From a virus (Duplodnaviria; Heunggongvirae; Uroviricota; Caudoviricetes), in IMG/VR virus record IMGVR_UViG_2778261179_000010: a DNA stretch of 5,858 nucleotides; one strand, given 5' to 3'. The position numbers and the translations under genes are program-made. Position 1 is the first letter of the stretch. Each line of letters begins with the position of its first letter. Shown one piece after another: positions 308-5,858 of the stretch. A model generated the notes under the pieces. The model saw nothing but the letters and a program-made list of their open reading frames with translations, was not told the origin of the DNA and made no database searches.

Positions 308-1390
308 ATGAAAAAATTAACAGTGGCAATTTCTGCTGTAGCTGCATCAGTACTGATGGCGATGTCTGCTCAGGCAGCTGAAATTTATAATAAAGACAGT
401 AACAAGCTGGATCTATATGGGAAAGTTAATGCCAAGCACTACTTCTCCTCTAATGATGCAGATGATGGTGATACTACTTATGCCCGTCTTGGCTTCAAAG
501 GTGAAACCCAAATCAACGATCAACTGACTGGTTTCGGTCAGTGGGAATATGAATTCAAAGGCAACCGCGCTGAATCTCAAGGCTCCTCCAAAGACAAAAC
601 CCGTCTTGCATTTGCAGGCCTGAAATTCGGGGACTACGGCTCAATCGATTACGGCCGTAACTACGGTGTAGCATATGACATCGGTGCGTGGACTGACGTT
701 CTGCCAGAATTCGGTGGCGATACCTGGACCCAAACAGATGTGTTCATGACTGGTCGCACCACTGGTGTTGCAACTTATCGTAACAACGACTTCTTTGGTC
801 TGGTTGATGGTCTGAACTTTGCTGCTCAGTATCAGGGTAAAAATGACCGCACTGACGTAACTGAAGCTAATGGTGATGGTTTCGGTTTCTCCACTACTTA
901 TGAGTATGAAGGATTCGGTGTAGGTGCAACCTATGCTAAATCTGACCGCACTAATAATCAGGTTATCTACGGTAACAACAGCCTGAATGCATCTGGTCAA
1001 AATGCTGAAGTATGGGCAGCTGGTCTGAAATATGATGCGAACAACATCTATCTGGCTACCACCTATTCTGAAACCCAGAACATGACTGTTTTTGGTAATA
1101 ACCATATTGCCAACAAAGCACAAAACTTCGAAGTAGTTGCACAATATCAGTTCGACTTCGGTCTGCGTCCGTCCGTTGCTTACCTGCAATCTAAAGGAAA
1201 AGACTTGGGTGCGTGGGGTGATCAGGACCTGGTTGAATATATTGATGTAGGTGCAACCTATTACTTCAACAAAAATATGTCCACTTTTGTTGATTACAAA
1301 ATCAACCTGATTGATAAGAGCGATTTCACGAAAGCATCTGGCGTTGCTACCGATGATATCGTTGCTGTAGGTATGGTTTACCAGTTCTAA
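308..1390 (+). CDS. nmpC: Outer-membrane general porin, OmpC/OmpF/PhoE family, prophage-encoded NmpC/Lc/OmpD-like; 360 aa with 23-aa signal peptide
   Basis: Same frame as track ORF 248..1390, but the real start is ATG 308 where a classic signal peptide begins ([23 protein letters not shown], then AEIYNKD). AAGGG Shine-Dalgarno about 8 nt upstream. Porin hallmarks: [82 protein letters not shown]-terminal VYQF. Position next to the Q gene matches nmpC in DLP12. Confidence 0.93.
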
Positions 1391-1400
1391 TTTGATTACT

Positions 1401-1440
1401 AAAAGATATGTTGTGGGAGGCTTTGCCTCCCCAACATATA
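1401..1440 (-). terminator. Long imperfect hairpin (ATATGTTGTGGGAGGC-TTT-GCCTCCCCAACATAT) followed on the - strand by CTTTT; candidate tR'-like terminator for the short transcript downstream of Q
   Basis: About 15-bp stem with one bulge at 1406..1440. On the - strand it is followed by a T-run (complement of 1401..1405). It lies about 140-170 nt downstream of the Q stop, where lambdoid phages place pR'/qut/tR'. Confidence 0.4.
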
Positions 1441-1526
1441 AGTGGCTCCCTCAAGCCACTTCCTTTAGAAGCACAACCTTGCTTCTAACTATATAAACCT
1501 TCTGTTATATATTACCCTTTATTTTT

Positions 1527-1556
1527 GGGGGCGTTTCAACGCCCCATTTTTAATAA
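1527..1556 (+). terminator. Rho-independent terminator for the porin transcript
   Basis: GC stem GGGGCG / CGCCCC (1528..1533 and 1540..1545) with 6-nt loop, followed by ATTTTTAATAATTTTT; about 140 nt after the porin stop codon. Confidence 0.6.
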
Positions 1557-1578
1557 TTTTTAGTAAACAATTGGCATA

Positions 1579-1962
1579 TTAATTAGAGTTATTAACAACG
1601 ATATCCATCTCTAACCGGATATCTAATGCCATTAACATCCCTTCAATTATGCCCTCAGCCTTCTGTAACCTTTTCCCGATATAACCATCAGAGCAGCAAT
1701 GCTTACCTGCCAGTGACATGAATGTCATACCGACTACATAATAATCTACTAATAAATCGTGCAAATCGCTGTTGTTCTTTTTCAGACGGGCCATGCACCC
1801 GCAAATGATCATCGCGTCATCGTCACAACATTGCGGGCGAGATTTTACTTTTGAAGGAATTAATCCCTTAAAACCGGCGGCAATGGACGACCAGGTCACA
1901 TCTTCATGATTATTAGCCGCCCACGCTCCCCAACGCTCAAGAACCATCTGAATATCACGCAT
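1579..1962 (-). CDS. quuD: Late-gene antiterminator Q (phage 82 / DLP12 QuuD family), 127 aa
   Basis: The track ORF 1579..1977 begins at a TTG. The ATG at 1962 ([24 protein letters not shown]...) has a GGAG Shine-Dalgarno about 9 nt upstream and gives 127 aa. Cys-rich core ([29 protein letters not shown]). Synteny rusA-ylcG-Q-porin as in DLP12. Confidence 0.88.
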
Positions 1963-2047
1963 CAACTTACTCCACAAAAATCAGACCAGAACGCCAATTA
2001 CAAGCAAAAATCAACGAAACAGTATTAGTTGATTGTTATCTCTGACT

Positions 2048-2188
2048 TCATACTCCTGCTCCTGTCAGGGTTTTGGCGTAATTCTTCAGTATTCGGTAAT
2101 CGGTCAAAACAGAACCGGGGAAACGATATAAGCGCAGACGCCCCCAGCGGTGGCGAAGACGTTCTGCCATATAAAACTCAAACATCAT
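2048..2188 (-). CDS. ylcG: Small prophage protein, YlcG-like, 46 aa ([46 protein letters not shown])
   Basis: Hand translation of the - strand. Its ATG (2188..2186) overlaps the rusA TGA stop (2187..2185) as ATGA. GGGGA Shine-Dalgarno 5-6 nt upstream. Length and position between rusA and Q match my recollection of DLP12 ylcG; the sequence identity itself is not verified. Confidence 0.5.
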
Positions 2189-2547
2189 TCATTCCCCATT
2201 TCGGTGATGGTCAGTTCCAGCCTCCCACCTTTGGTAACAGGCATCTTCACAACGCGGTAATCAACGACCTGAGCATCATCCAGCCAGAAACCTGCTTTAG
2301 TGAGTGCGTCAAAAGCGGCTTTTTGCAGATTATCCAGGTCACGGCGACGGCGATCCGGCATGTGGCACTCAATGCGGATTTTCACAGGCATAGCCAAGCC
2401 GATATCCAGCATTGCGTTTTTAATGATTCGGGCGACGTTATCGCGGTATGCCTGCCCCTCTGCGCTGACGTGCGTGCGCCCGCGATTATGGCGGTAATAG
2501 CGATTATTGCTCGGAGGCCAGGGTAATGTGATGCTGTAGGTATTCAC
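2185..2547 (-). CDS. rusA: Holliday junction resolvase RusA (crossover junction endodeoxyribonuclease), 120 aa, GTG start
   Basis: Track ORF 2185..2610 trimmed to the GTG at 2547 ([42 protein letters not shown]..., ending TITEMGNE), giving the 120-aa RusA length. GAGGGGG Shine-Dalgarno upstream. The GTG overlaps the ybcO stop as GTGA. Confidence 0.88.
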
Positions 2548-2834
2548 GCCTTGATTACCCCCTCTTTCAGCCAGATAACCTGCGTTCTCGCCATACCTTC
2601 CAGCGCGCATTCTTTTGCGTACTCAGCATCGACAAAATGCGTGCGGCGGTCGATTTCGTCGTGACAGGCAGAACAGGCAATGGTGGCAATAAGGTCTGGC
2701 GGTTTAATACCGGTGCCACACAGTCCAGCCAGCCGGATATGTGCCAGTACAGACGTTTCAGGGTTGCCATTGCATACGCCAGGGATTCTTACCTGGCATT
2801 CGCGACCACGCGCTGCTTTTCTCAAATCAGCCAT
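2544..2834 (-). CDS. ybcO: Prophage nin-region protein YbcO (DUF1364-type putative nuclease), 96 aa
   Basis: Track ORF 2544..2873 trimmed to the ATG at 2834 ([32 protein letters not shown]...), which has a perfect AAGGAGG Shine-Dalgarno. Cys-rich (CxxC-type) motifs. Position between ninE and rusA as in DLP12. Confidence 0.82.
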
Positions 2835-2997
2835 GATTCCTCCTTGCTGCCAGTCGCAACCATTTTTTATCAACCAGGCTGGCGGTATATCCGAGCAGTG
2901 TTGGTATTTCGGATGGTTTTAGCTCAGGCTTACGCTTACGACGATTTGGTACTCTGTAGATGTGTCCGTTCATGACACGAATAAGCGGTGTAGCCAT
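2827..2997 (-). CDS. ninE: NinE-like small protein, 56 aa ([56 protein letters not shown])
   Basis: Not in the ORF track (too short); found by hand translation. Its ATG (2997..2995) overlaps the ybcN TAA stop by 1 nt, and its 3' end overlaps the ybcO start by 8 nt. The sequence matches my recollection of lambdoid NinE. Confidence 0.75.
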   Translation of the reverse strand: MATPLIRVMNGHIYRVPNRRKRKPELKPSEIPTLLGYTASLVDKKWLRLAARRNHG

Positions 2998-3452
2998 TAC
3001 GCCTCCTGCTTGTCGCGCAGCAGCTGGAACTCGCAGCTCTGCGGAATAGTCAGGTGGCAGCCAATATTCATCGCCAAGGCTTCAACCTTACACAGGAAGA
3101 CATACATCTCTCCGGTATCAAGATCGGAGGTATGGCGTAACGACTGGATAGTAGTGATTTCGCCGGTTACGACATCAACCAGGTCCTTGGTTTCATAACC
3201 GAGGTATGTGTGTTTGAGAGCATCTTTTACCCATGCTGCGGTAGCGAACGATTTCCCCCTGCGGATAAGGTATTCACTGATTTCGCTGTACCACATGTGG
3301 CTAAGTGCATTCTGGGAAAGACTGCGTCTCTCGCGCCACGGTTTAAGCACCATGCGAAAGCACTTGCCGTCTTCCAAATAAGGCTGGAGCTGCTGACCGA
3401 TAGCGGTGAAGTTACCGCGATGCAGTTTGATGCCGTCTTGTGGGAGGTTCAC
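2997..3452 (-). CDS. ybcN: Prophage protein YbcN (DLP12 nin-region protein, reported DNA base-flipping protein), 151 aa, GTG start
   Basis: Track ORF 2997..3452; the first codon is GTG (complement of CAC at 3450..3452) with a GGAGG Shine-Dalgarno 7 nt upstream. Protein [30 protein letters not shown]... Synteny upstream of ninE. Confidence 0.82.
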
Positions 3453-3673: not shown

Positions 3674-4075
3674 TTATTTTAACTCATAGATCAGACAGTC
3701 AACGATTTCTAAACCATTTACCATAGAATTAGAAACGCGAACTTTACCATCGTTGACTCTAGCAAATCCTTTTAACATTTTATAAACAAAAGCTGAATCC
3801 CCCTTAGCCTCAATTGCTTCTAATGGTATCGGCTTATACTTTTTTGATATGCTATTTCTATTTATCTCACTGATTTTTCTATATATTTCTGCCGGCCCAC
3901 GTTCTGAGAAGTCACTGATAACTAAAATATATCTCCAAGATAGATCTGGGTAATAAAACCACATTGCAGCATCAATAGTTAAATTCTGTAACTTGAGTTT
4001 TTTTAACAAAAATTGACCTGAGAATTCCATATCTTTTGTCAACTCTCTGCCGATTACCAGTGTGCTTTTACCCAT
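3674..4075 (-). CDS. Hypothetical protein, 133 aa, second gene of the HEPN cassette (candidate cognate partner)
   Basis: Track ORF. The ATG at 4075 has a GGAG Shine-Dalgarno about 10 nt upstream and lies 22 nt inside the 3' end of the upstream HEPN gene. AT-rich codon usage like its neighbour. I see no nucleotidyltransferase (GS...DxD) or other recognisable motif. Confidence 0.6.
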   Translation of the reverse strand: MGKSTLVIGRELTKDMEFSGQFLLKKLKLQNLTIDAAMWFYYPDLSWRYILVISDFSERGPAEIYRKISEINRNSISKKYKPIPLEAIEAKGDSAFVYKMLKGFARVNDGKVRVSNSMVNGLEIVDCLIYELK

Positions 4076-4470
4076 TTCAAAACTCCAGAATTTTGGTCAC
4101 CTACAGCATCAAACAATTGTTCGGCCATAGCTTTACTTATGTTATTGTCGTATCTAAATTGCTCGCTCCAGTCTTTAACGACCGACCAGTTAATCTCCAA
4201 CGAAACATCATTTTTTGCGTCAGCAATCAAAATTTGATGTAAGTTGGCAATTTTGAGAAGTTGCGACAAATCATGAGTATATGAATCATTTACGACTTTT
4301 TTGTTTGGAAACTCATGTTGTAAAAATGACTTGGCAATACAGGCCTTCAATGCACATTCAACTGCATACCCACAAAGATAATATGCACCATGAAAAAAGC
4401 CATGATCAAGCAAGCATTTGGCCTCATTAAGCCTAGTGTCAGATAATGCTTCAAGGTCGTTTTTATTCAT
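4054..4470 (-). CDS. HEPN-domain-like protein, 138 aa (candidate toxin/RNase or nucleotide-binding component)
   Basis: Track ORF. The N-terminal helix pair LNEAKCLLDHGFFHGAYYLCGYAVECALKACIAK, the HDLSQLLK segment and C-terminal FRYD fit the classic HEPN four-helix signature. No obvious Shine-Dalgarno. The region is markedly AT-rich relative to the flanking prophage genes. Confidence 0.62.
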   Translation of the reverse strand: MNKNDLEALSDTRLNEAKCLLDHGFFHGAYYLCGYAVECALKACIAKSFLQHEFPNKKVVNDSYTHDLSQLLKIANLHQILIADAKNDVSLEINWSVVKDWSEQFRYDNNISKAMAEQLFDAVGDQNSGVLKWVKAHW

Positions 4471-4769: not shown

Positions 4770-5378
4770 TTACAGCCGTTCAGAACGTAAATGCGTCAAT
4801 ACTCGACTCCACTTATCATCCTGCCACGGCCGGAATTTTACATGTGCCGTTTCTCTGGCAAGGATTGCCTGTGCCTTATTGAGTATCCGGGGATATTCTT
4901 GTTCGATTGAAGTGAAGCGACCGGCTTCGCGGTGTTCTGCTACCTGAAGAAGCGGAGTGACGTTTTGGCAAGCGGTTAACATTGTGTCACTTGCCCGCCA
5001 TAACCAAGCAAGTGTGCAAAGTTCGTTATCAGTGAATTGTTTTGTGATTGGGGATTGTTGAATTTCTCGATCGAGAATATCCAGCACCCAGCGGCGGAAT
5101 TCTTTGGCCACAGGAGTGCGGGCGAACATGGCGATCAGATGGGCGCCACGGAGGGAGAAAATGCGAGTCTTCTTACGATAATTTCCTGAGGTCGTTGATT
5201 CGACGACCTGAGACATTCCGTCAGTAAACTCATCAATATTTTTGTTGTAGATGTCGGTTACTGCTTTGGTGCTGGCATATTTTAATGCTGCCGCCAATTC
5301 TTTGCTGGTAAACCAGATCTGGTTGTTGTGATTTATAGGAGTGAATTTTACATCGCGGAATGCGAGCTGAGTGACCAT
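4770..5378 (-). CDS. Phage antirepressor-like protein (Bro-N / AntA / P22 Ant N-terminal-type domain; Roi-like), about 202 aa
   Basis: Track ORF 4770..5615 begins at a TTG. The domain signature (LAFRDVKFTPINHNNQIWFTSKELAAALKY ... TRIFSLRGAHLIAMFARTPVAKEFRRWVLDIL) starts right after the ATG at 5378, so that start is preferred. The alternative ATG at 5513 cannot be excluded. Confidence 0.6.
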   Translation of the reverse strand: MVTQLAFRDVKFTPINHNNQIWFTSKELAAALKYASTKAVTDIYNKNIDEFTDGMSQVVESTTSGNYRKKTRIFSLRGAHLIAMFARTPVAKEFRRWVLDILDREIQQSPITKQFTDNELCTLAWLWRASDTMLTACQNVTPLLQVAEHREAGRFTSIEQEYPRILNKAQAILARETAHVKFRPWQDDKWSRVLTHLRSERL

Positions 5379-5540
5379 AGCGATAATCTCGTTTTGAATT
5401 TGAGCTATCACCACCGACGACGCCAATCGACTGGTGGTGGACTGTGCAAGGTTGGCGTAACCGGTCAAAACGAAATCCGGCGCTTCCGAAGAAGCCCTCA
5501 CACAGCCCACCATAATTTTTGTGTAGACGTGCACTGCGCA

Positions 5541-5562
5541 TAAAAAAACCGCGAACGCGGTT
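5541..5562 (-). terminator. Small GC hairpin (ACCGC-GAAC-GCGGT) followed on the - strand by TTTTTTTA; candidate intrinsic terminator or attenuator
   Basis: Seen directly. The stem is short (5-7 bp) but the T-run has 7 T's. It lies about 160 nt upstream of the preferred ant-like start. Confidence 0.45.
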
Positions 5563-5622
5563 ATGCGTCGTTTTGATGTCCGGGACGCCAATCCCGTGTG
5601 CCGATTTTGCGGCAACGCACAG

Positions 5623-5652
5623 AATATAGCGCCGGATAAATAATGTCGTCAA
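5623..5652 (-). promoter_or_regulatory. Candidate sigma70 promoter on the - strand: TTGACG (5652..5647), 18-nt spacer, TATATT (5628..5623)
   Basis: Hexamers match consensus at 5/6 each. The predicted start site near 5616 is about 55-75 nt upstream of the 5541..5562 hairpin. Confidence 0.35.
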
Positions 5653-5796
5653 CCCTTGCATATGGGGGGCGCGATGATCACTACTACCACCATAATCGCT
5701 CCAACTGTTGCAACTACTTTAGGCTAAGACATCACGATTTCCATATCACCTTTAGCCGCCAGACAAACAGAGACTCCCTGTTCTTGGCTGCCAAAA

Positions 5797-5858
5797 GGCT
5801 TTGTTGAATAAATCGAACTTTTGCTGAGTTGAAGGATCAGATCACGCATCTTCCCGAC
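5797..5858 (+). mobile_element. IS903-group (IS5 family) insertion sequence terminus, partial; IS body lies beyond the window end, terminus at base 5797
   Basis: Exact reverse complement of 1..62. Begins with the 18-bp terminal repeat GGCTTTGTTGAATAAATC reading into the element. Confidence 0.75.

Follow-up and report, generated by a model that had tools for sequence, protein, structure and literature searches.

The region upstream of the antirepressor-like gene in the analysed window (the whole 5,858-nt stretch of phage DNA) is very probably an RNA immunity module of the P1/P7 c4 (immI) kind, in its Gifsy-1 IsrK form, which guards a Bro-N/P22AR antirepressor gene. The region belongs to known IsrK and C4 RNA families, it carries six complementary sites that covary in a three-way manner among relatives, its terminator and C4 helices are conserved, and the gene is identified by its domains and protein families. 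The elements of the module, from upstream to downstream, are as follows:

5652..5647, minus strand: -35 hexamer TTGACG (consensus scan), with TTGAC or TTGAT in the same column in most of 49 aligned leaders
5628..5623, minus strand: -10 hexamer TATATT (consensus scan), at an 18-nt spacer from the -35 hexamer
5616..5542, minus strand: IsrK-type leader or short sRNA (Rfam RF01394), its start placed by inference
5592..5585, minus strand: site a1, AUUGGCGU, in the loop of IsrK hairpin 2, complementary to a'
5576..5568, minus strand: site b1, UCAAAACGA, single-stranded between hairpin 2 and the terminator, the exact complement of b'
5562..5542, minus strand: intrinsic terminator, made of the hairpin AACCGC-GUUC-GCGGUU (5562..5547) and T7 (5548..5542)
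5517..5430, minus strand: C4 antisense RNA, 88 nt (Rfam RF01695)
5513..5511, minus strand: conserved AUG, located in the C4 closing stem on its 5' strand
5473..5465, minus strand: site b', UCGUUUUGA, in the loop of C4 hairpin 2
5458..5452, minus strand: site a', ACGCCAA, single-stranded, 3' of C4 hairpin 2
5439..5409, minus strand: a2 hairpin (fold), a CACCACC/GGUGGUG stem with a2 in the loop
5427..5420, minus strand: site a2, AUUGGCGU, in the loop of the a2 hairpin, the same sequence as a1
5397..5385, minus strand: site b2, UCAAAACGAGAUU, covering a weak Shine-Dalgarno-like GAGA
5378..4770, minus strand: antirepressor-like gene, 202 aa, with a Bro-N domain (Pfam PF02498) and a P22AR C-terminal domain (PF10548)

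The promoter scores 10/12, the joint best in the window by consensus scan, and a strict TTGAY-N17-20-TANNNT pattern was matched by 73 of 101 relatives. Its -10 hexamer is aligned with the start of the Rfam c4-a1b1 model, is identical to that of Gifsy-1 PisrK and in the alignment likewise lies 6 nt from the RNA start. Transcription would begin near 5616, a position placed through the +1 of the aligned Gifsy-1 IsrK, because A107 of the published numbering (PMC4825925) corresponds to the ATG in C4. The consensus scan revealed no further promoter-like site on the minus strand of the leader and none on the plus strand of 5379..5660, while an operator search found no clear inverted repeat at the promoter, only a 70% palindrome at 5661..5694. 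Downstream of the promoter, the RF01394 isrK model is matched end to end at 5614..5542 (64.1 bits against a gathering score of 50, E = 1.9e-12), and the parts of IsrK follow in order: hairpin 1, hairpin 2 presenting a1, the single-stranded b1 and the terminator. The RF03163 c4-a1b1 model scores 40.6 in the window, below its gathering score of 46.7, and the isrK model covers the same sequence above threshold. All three IsrK hairpins are present in both the minimum-energy and the centroid folds, and hairpins 1 and 2 are 89% paired in relatives, with pairs changed on both sides; folded alone, IsrK is no better than shuffles (z = -1.1). The terminator (6-bp GC stem, 4-nt loop, U7 run; -8.1 kcal/mol) lies at +55..+75 relative to the putative start at 5616, and a hairpin followed by at least five T's occupies the same place in 101/101 related leaders.

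These results bear on a sequence-only reading of the same DNA, which had described a near-consensus minus-strand promoter (TTGACG, 18-nt spacer, TATATT) without a strong alternative in the leader, a GC hairpin plus seven T's 55-75 nt later, and a leader of roughly 160 nt before the ATG. All of these elements were recovered, with 163 nt between the end of the T run and ATG 5378. The suggestion of controlled read-through or a short regulatory RNA was right in that an IsrK-type RNA is found above the Rfam gathering score, but the C4 RNA, which would be the main regulator, went unrecognised. The check that it had proposed, folding for terminator/antiterminator alternatives, turned up none: the fold of the full leader holds no structure alternative to the terminator and retains the terminator hairpin. 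Consensus scans alone do not exceed chance (7 promoter-like sites in the window versus 11.8 +/- 3.6 in shuffles; 9 terminator-like sites versus 5.3 +/- 2.2), and it is because of homology and covariation that the finding stands above it.

The C4 RNA matches RF01695 with 82.5 bits (gathering score 45, E = 1e-15) and folds with a minimum free energy of -42.4 kcal/mol (z = -5.0). Its helices are 98-100% paired across relatives, with many changes on both sides; when the IsrK hairpins, the terminator and C4 are counted together, both-sided changes occur in 22 of 43 helix pairs, and the helix covariation score reaches 0.354, as compared with 0.04-0.08 for slid partners. The conserved C4 ends, UUAUGGUGGG...CCACCACC, align, as a matter of homology only, with the ends of mature P1 c4 in its GenBank record, and by analogy with P1 the mature C4 would comprise 79 nt, 5511..5433. 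The imperfect palindrome CACCACC...GGTGGTG reported earlier in the leader is present where it was placed, as a perfect 7-bp complement on the minus strand (CACCACC at 5439..5433, GGTGGTG at 5415..5409). It is no antiterminator, though: CACCACC is the C4 closing stem's 3' strand and GGTGGTG a conserved complement further downstream, which presents a2, and the palindrome belongs to C4 and a2. The a2 hairpin has an energy of -16.8 kcal/mol (z = -2.3), and its outer helix is 89.8% paired in 49 leaders. A tRNA/tmRNA scan found nothing.

All six pairing sites are matched in the window, and b2 contains the b1 sequence, UCAAAACGA. Thirteen contiguous pairs, two of them G-U, are possible between b' and b2, and seven between a' and a2. 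Across 99 distinct leaders, from viral loci gathered by a pattern that fixes both C4 ends and hence a sample biased towards this subfamily, we counted 40 b' variants, 18 a' variants and 51 a/b combinations. The a' of the window, ACGCCAA, is the commonest type (51/99), and its b' occurs, among the 99, in this prophage alone. The cognate sites retain at least seven contiguous pairs in 89% (b1), 92% (b2), 94% (a1) and 98% (a2) of the 99 leaders, as against 24-38% of non-cognate combinations for the b sites (37% for b2) and 12-33% for the a sites. In the 49 aligned leaders, a1:a' is 97.4% paired with 6/7 pairs changed on both sides, and b1:b' 81.6% with 9/9; a':a2 is 83-91% paired in aligned leaders, with 5/5 pairs changed on both sides. 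On MAFFT columns b':b2 is only 35% paired, because that alignment shifts the variable loops out of register, and support for b2 was therefore taken from the alignment-free count of contiguous pairs. Duplex and co-fold energies were not used as support, since thermodynamics computed on one sequence have no discriminating power: pairing of b' with b2 (-15.2 kcal/mol) falls just under the lowest value among 500 shuffled loops (minimum -14.9, mean -8.8), a'/a1 (-14.9), a'/a2 (-10.0) and b'/b1 (-10.4 kcal/mol) all lie within their shuffle ranges, and co-folding of C4 with IsrK and with the downstream target predicted zero intermolecular pairs.

The gene product matches PHROG "anti-repressor Ant" families. 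The start that had been preferred, ATG 5378, is the one from which RefSeq annotates the CDS in an identical prophage; the Pfam domain positions also fit it, Bro-N beginning at residue 15 of the 202-aa protein, and the ATG forms a conserved column of the alignment. The interval from C4 to this ATG is only 54 nt long and holds both a2 and b2, the latter ending 6 nt ahead of the start codon; the Shine-Dalgarno sequence of ant is the weak GAGA. The gene lies in the interval from replication gene P to ninB, in the nin region of a lambdoid E. coli prophage. The other conserved AUG, at 5513, lies 45 codons upstream of ant in the same frame, with no intervening stop; in Gifsy-1, orf45 has its first start codon at the counterpart of this AUG, and in P1 the 5' end annotated for c4 separates the U of the corresponding AUG from its G. 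The distance from this AUG to ant is a multiple of three in 73/96 leaders but in only 7/16 distinct distances, and we rejected frame conservation as coding evidence, the excess being due to two large clades.

In the scheme that we infer, which takes in partial termination, RNase P processing, the directions of regulation and the target of the Ant-like protein, the sigma-70 promoter at 5652..5623 would start an RNA near 5616, and the majority of transcripts would stop at the modest terminator, giving an IsrK-type RNA of about 75 nt, on which a1 is exposed in the loop of a hairpin and b1 as a single strand. Read-through transcripts would carry C4, from which, by analogy with P1, an RNase P cut at the 5' end may release an RNA of about 79 nt. 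Its a' and b' would pair with a2 and b2 of the same or another transcript, covering the ribosome-binding region of ant and blocking translation, and C4 could act in trans against incoming phages of the same specificity. The a1 and b1 sites of IsrK would pair with the same a' and b' sequences, rivalling a2 and b2; hence, we propose that a high level of short IsrK competes with a2/b2 and so turns ant translation on, an effect measured in Gifsy-1.

For the isrK-orf45(STnc1160)-anrP locus of Salmonella Typhimurium (Gifsy-1), Hershko-Shalev et al. (2016; PMC4825925) attribute activation to an mRNA that changes between two structures and to orf45 translation, and not to titration of a processed C4 repressor. 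Transferred to the window, their model would give processed C4 no repressor role: a1 and b1 of IsrK would pair in cis with a' and b' in an inactive mRNA, and short IsrK acting in trans would displace this helix and open AUG 5513, from which translation would run into ant, as an in-frame extension and not a separate orf45, since this AUG is in frame with ant. We consider this possible but somewhat doubtful. It is a published model with reporter, native-gel and toeprint data, constitutive STnc1160 made IsrK toxicity stronger, not weaker (PMC4825925), and in the window the AUG is conserved, in frame and followed by no stop, while the weak ant Shine-Dalgarno sequence means that upstream translation could help. 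However, the switch leaves unexplained both the covariation of a2/b2 with a'/b' and the retention of the C4 fold by compensatory changes, and IsrK and C4 are separate domains in the minimum-energy fold of the window leader. The uORF arrangement is also variable: it stops 17 nt before ant in the closest relative (L005) and 12-118 nt before it in others, the AUGA overlap occurs in only 2/99 leaders, and P1-like RNase P processing, if it occurs, removes AUG 5513. The mRNA switch and repression by C4 are largely compatible, and both may hold. A quite improbable variant would join them as two exclusive RNA fates, in which either C4 processing destroys AUG 5513 or translation into an N-terminally extended Ant of 247 aa unfolds C4, the choice being made by short IsrK; if this were true, the frequent open ant frame (more than 600 nt in SfV-like phages) would reflect translation through an RNA gene. 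The P4 type of control, in which a C4-like RNA acts mainly on transcription, pairing with a1/b1 (seqA-like) and a2/b2 (seqC-like) to cause premature termination, and the hairpin at 5562..5542 is a regulated terminator, is unlikely here. The Gifsy-1 authors name P4 CI/seqA as a structural homologue and found that IsrK in trans raised a transcriptional fusion 8-fold (PMC4825925), and the C4 and isrK models are reported to find CI/seqA relatives (PMC10111431). Against this, b2 lies over the ant ribosome site, as in P1, where the primary target is translation (reviewed in PMC12197685), and the translational effect in Gifsy-1 (139-fold) is far above the transcriptional one.

The remaining explanations dispense with the RNA module. 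It is very unlikely that the leader is simply coding sequence, in which the ant-like gene would begin at 5513 or TTG 5615 and would match a promoter and a hairpin by chance. Such a gene could explain why the ant frame is open from just past the -35 hexamer, within which its closing in-frame TGA sits, to ant, why the translated leader matches PHROG "transcriptional regulator" families, why this frame is open for at least 250 nt upstream in 57% of related leaders (14% and 6% for the other frames), and why long ORFs are annotated in some phage records, e.g., SfV orf37. Frame openness carries little weight, because a second frame (ORF 5233..5661) is also open across the window leader; moreover, the variation obeys RNA rules, with compensatory helix pairs and three-way loop covariation, in-frame stops occur in the closest relative, and both the Bro-N position and the RefSeq start favour ATG 5378. 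The Gifsy-1 authors observed that in the orf45 region nucleotides are conserved and amino acids vary (PMC4825925). The terminator between promoter and gene and the P22AR C-terminal domain of Ant might also suggest a classical attenuator, with a signal-sensing terminator/antiterminator, or a P22-type immI with a sar-like antisense RNA and arc/mnt, and either would be extremely improbable: no riboswitch or leader family of Rfam was matched with an E-value of up to 1, the full-leader fold keeps the terminator hairpin, the palindrome is part of C4 and a2 without competing with the terminator, the plus strand of 5379..5660 lacks a promoter-like site, and no arc- or mnt-like genes are annotated nearby.

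An RNA immunity module of the c4 kind explains the unannotated 290-nt gap ahead of the antirepressor gene. A DLP12-like prophage carries the gene in about 170 complete E. coli genomes, among them those of O26, O103 and O157 strains; the RefSeq record of the identical prophage carries no annotation of the module, and a search of the literature for it in E. coli or Stx phages brought up general mentions only. The isrK-C4 tandem precedes ant-like genes in 9/9 fetched phage loci, Gifsy-1 included. Gifsy-1 IsrK and P1 c4, often handled separately, prove to be one module, with IsrK as the a1/b1 leader and the "orf45"/STnc1160 region as C4. Given the many a/b specificities and the b type of its own, the module may be regarded as an address label between prophages, with a bearing on cross-immunity or cross-induction among co-resident prophages in pathogenic E. 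coli. What is new here is this b specificity; the mechanism is already known from P1 and Gifsy-1.

Comparison with the immI regions of P22-like phages, which had been suggested earlier, proved less apt than comparison with P1/P7 immI. The window shares with P22 an RNA-controlled antirepressor gene, and what is P22-like in it is the Ant C-terminal domain alone (PF10548); P22 immI relies on a sar antisense RNA from the opposite strand and two protein repressors, none of which was found in the window, arc/mnt-like genes being absent both from its ORFs and from the RefSeq annotation nearby. P4 CI, with seqA and seqC, is likewise a processed immunity RNA between two complementary target copies, a likeness drawn from description only, and relatives of CI and seqA are reported among the hits of the Rfam C4 and isrK models (PMC10111431). 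CI causes premature transcription termination of the replication operon, whereas the downstream target in the window lies over a ribosome site.

The immI operon of P1/P7, with c4, icd and ant1/ant2, was reportedly described by Citron and Schuster in 1990. In common with it, the window has a promoter, a1, b1, a terminator-like hairpin, c4, a2, b2 and a first gene, with a' on the single-stranded 3' side and b' in the hairpin 2 loop; a1, b1, c4, a2 and b2 are annotated in the P1 record in the same order and relative places, and the P1 leader, from the c4 promoter to c4, scores 51 bits with c4-a1b1 and 35 bits with isrK. Both the a and b specificities differ from those of P1, the closing stem ends in CCACCACC in the window and in CUGCCACC in P1, and b2 lies 6 nt from the start codon instead of 10 nt. 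Unlike P1, the window has no icd gene, so that b2 stands directly ahead of ant and the frame of AUG 5513, overlapping C4, is the sole ORF upstream; the C1 operator (Op51) and second promoter of P1 were not found, and the 202-aa Bro-N/P22AR protein replaces Ant1/Ant2.

In Gifsy-1, anrP transcription is driven from PisrK, the terminator is partly read through into the antirepressor gene, IsrK binds Hfq, and short IsrK in trans increases anrP translation more than 100-fold (139-fold; 8-fold for the transcriptional fusion); STnc1160 was found in Salmonella as a stable processed RNA downstream of IsrK (PMC4825925). The locus differs from the window in its b specificity (CGGUGAU, versus UCGUUUUGA), in its Shine-Dalgarno sequence (GGAGG, versus the weak GAGA), in the end of orf45, which overlaps anrP in an AUGA whereas the window AUG is in frame with ant and meets no stop, in its position in the prophage (after Q, versus between replication gene P and ninB) and in the isrJ that follows the gene, which an Rfam scan did not find in the window. 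Both are carried by lambdoid prophages and share the TTGAC...TATATT promoter, a three-hairpin IsrK with its terminator, a C4-type RNA 25 nt further on, a2/b2 and a Bro-N/P22AR gene. Moreover, their a1, a' and a2 sequences are identical, and by position count the residues of the compensatory Gifsy-1 mutants G28A/C162U and G31A/C159U (PMC4825925) fall in a1 and a'.

A search against all Rfam families returned three matches, all on the - strand. The module before the ant-like gene is a real, well-conserved regulatory element of known kind, in which the hairpin with its T run is the IsrK terminator. The C4 RNA had been missed by the sequence-only reading. C4 folds at -42.4 kcal/mol (z = -5.0), while IsrK shows the three hairpins of its family, yet with z = -1.1 is no better than shuffles.

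Features of the module (a1/b1, target copies in the IsrK-type leader; a2/b2, copies before ant; a'/b', complements in C4)
5652..5623, - strand: promoter TTGACG-18-TATATT, seen in the sequence
5629..5577, - strand: c4-a1b1 (RF03163), 40.6 bits, below the gathering score of 46.7, E = 7.4e-08
5614..5542, - strand: isrK (RF01394), 64.1 bits, gathering score 50, E = 1.9e-12
5592..5585, - strand: a1, AUUGGCGU
5576..5568, - strand: b1, UCAAAACGA
5562..5547, - strand: terminator hairpin, then T7 ending at 5542
163 nt, - strand: leader
5517..5430, - strand: C4 antisense RNA (RF01695), 82.5 bits, gathering score 45, E = 1e-15
5473..5465, - strand: b', UCGUUUUGA
5458..5452, - strand: a', ACGCCAA
5439..5433 and 5415..5409, - strand: CACCACC and GGTGGTG, the proposed 'palindrome'
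5427..5420, - strand: a2, AUUGGCGU
5397..5389, - strand: b2, UCAAAACGA

The promoter, hairpin with T7, leader and CACCACC/GGTGGTG elements were all found as first described, and the leader holds no second - strand promoter-like site, in line with the earlier statement on alternative promoters. The suggestion of a small RNA and controlled read-through was on target. The arms of the 'palindrome' are the C4 closing stem's 3' strand and a complement located downstream of it. Since consensus scans by themselves were not above chance (7 promoter-like sites in the window vs 11.8 in shuffles), the case rests on homology. The terminator has an energy of -8.1 kcal/mol, and a hairpin with a T run precedes C4 in 101 of 101 leaders. 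A search at the module promoter found no operator.

In P1, hairpin 2 of C4 has b' in its loop and a' as the single strand on its 3' side, and the window sites were located at the same places. The b2:b' pairing can be extended to 13 pairs, ending 6 nt before ATG 5378. Interaction energies from the single sequence gave no usable support for pairing. Further copies were gathered from viral contigs by a pattern anchored on both C4 ends, giving 99 distinct leaders, among which b' occurs in 40 variants, a' in 18 and the two combined in 51, and cognate pairing (at least 7 contiguous pairs) was compared with two non-cognate controls.

Leaders with cognate and non-cognate pairing
b1: cognate 89%, non-cognate 24-26%
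b2: cognate 92%, non-cognate 37-38%
a1: cognate 94%, non-cognate 30-33%
a2: cognate 98%, non-cognate 11-12%

Column pairs counted on an alignment of 49 sequences were paired in 97% for a1:a' (both sides changed in 6/7 pairs), 82% for b1:b' (9/9) and 83-91% for a':a2 (5/5), and the C4 helices in 98-100%; b':b2 reached only 35%, since these columns are out of register in the alignment. The hairpin around a2 (CACCACC/GGUGGUG) shows about 90% pairing but is nearly invariant, its 5' arm being fixed by the search pattern. The window b' is unique among the 99 leaders, and novelty is confined to a new specificity variant without annotation.

Blastn of phage records found 247 records, including Stx phages, phiV10, SfV, Yersinia and Enterobacter phages and Gifsy-1, and all nine fetched loci carry the isrK + C4 tandem before an antirepressor-like gene. 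The P1 leader, with its hairpin and U run, matches c4-a1b1 at 51 bits and isrK at 35 bits, and the annotated P1 immI operon (promoters, a1, b1, c4, a2, b2, icd, ant) has the same order as the window. Hence, IsrK is the leader that carries a1/b1 in an immI-type operon. The proposed comparison with immI of P22-like phages was wrong, P1 immI being the match; besides a P22-type immI, the readings as a classical attenuator and as a coding leader were rejected. One viral contig (IMGVR_UViG_2671181028_000005, reverse strand, ~1380..3360) holds three tandem 656-bp units, each with its own promoter, IsrK and C4, differing in a/b specificity and lying within 219-220-codon ORFs that abut via ATGA overlaps; the units form an immunity-module array bearing three 'addresses'.

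In Gifsy-1, the antirepressor gene anrP is transcribed from PisrK, with some transcripts continuing past the IsrK terminator; the long transcript is translationally silent, short IsrK in trans raises anrP translation 139-fold, and STnc1160 is a stable processed RNA downstream of IsrK (PMC4825925). In P1/P7, c4 represses the immI operon at the level of translation (P1 record; reviews). Counting from the published numbering, with A107 as the ATG in C4, the Gifsy-1 compensatory pairs G28/C162 and G31/C159 appear to fall in a1 and a', whose sequences are the same in Gifsy-1 and the window. In the proposed scheme, the promoter would fire near 5616, most transcripts would end at the terminator as a 75-nt IsrK-type RNA, and read-through transcripts would give rise to C4, which would cover a2/b2 and block ant translation; abundant IsrK, with decoy copies of the same targets, would relieve the block. 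Such a scheme would accommodate both published views, that of c4 as a repressor and that of IsrK as an activator.

The window is a lambdoid-prophage nin region, reading on the - strand through the RNA module, the ant-like gene (5378..4770), a HEPN gene pair, ninB/ybcN, ninE, ybcO, rusA, ylcG and the Q antiterminator, with a porin gene on the + strand. From 5796 downwards it is 100% identical to E. coli O26, O103 and O157 chromosomes. The top 62 bases (5797..5858) form the end of an IS5-like insertion sequence of the IS903B family; 1938 of 5426 complete E. coli genomes have identical, multiple copies of these bases. None of the 5426 contains their junction with prophage DNA at 5796/5797, located 145 nt upstream of the -35 hexamer, and the source strain thus has a private IS insertion just upstream of the module. 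The overlapping pair directly downstream of ant (3674..4470, - strand) encodes a 138-aa HEPN-domain protein (PF05168) and a 133-aa protein (phrog_5760, unknown function, no Pfam match), and is possibly a moron-borne toxin-antitoxin or defence pair. In one identical chromosome, RefSeq starts the ant-like CDS at the ATG equivalent to 5378 and lists no RNA gene over the preceding 290 nt; in the identical E. coli prophage of NZ_AP018808.1 (6001..6420), IsrK and C4 have no ncRNA annotation. In several phage records, both RNAs are instead overlaid by CDSs, small or extended, labelled 'hypothetical protein', such as VT2-Sakai orf34, three in IdasGreatGrand and SfV orf37.

The ant frame tends to remain open well upstream, across C4, IsrK and even the promoter, in about 100 leaders: for at least 250 nt in 57% (vs 14% and 6% in the other frames) and at least 600 nt in 24% (vs 0%), the latter mostly SfV-like phages (SfV, 821..1657). 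In the window it is open over 5379..5646 and closed by a TGA within the -35 hexamer. Either inheritance within clades or genuine translation across the RNA genes could account for this. The IsrK/C4 region, translated over 5379..5615, matches PHROG 3960, 821 and 995 (E = 8e-12 to 2e-8), so that these families partly consist of ORFs called over conserved RNA genes; their label 'transcriptional regulator' is doubtful.

RNase P processing and Rho-dependent polarity were reportedly described by Hartmann et al. in 1995 and Biere et al. in 1992. The annotated 5' end of mature P1 c4 (GenBank; P1 record 8342..8344) lies between U and G of a conserved AUG, equivalent to window 5511..5513 and to the start of Gifsy-1 orf45; thus, P1-like RNase P processing would destroy this start codon. 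Unlike in Gifsy-1, the window AUG at 5513 shares the reading frame of ant and no stop lies between them, an arrangement not kept in the closest relative (L005). The window Shine-Dalgarno sequence is weak and, unlike P1, the window has no icd gene, which places the C4 target b2 right on the ribosome-binding region of ant.
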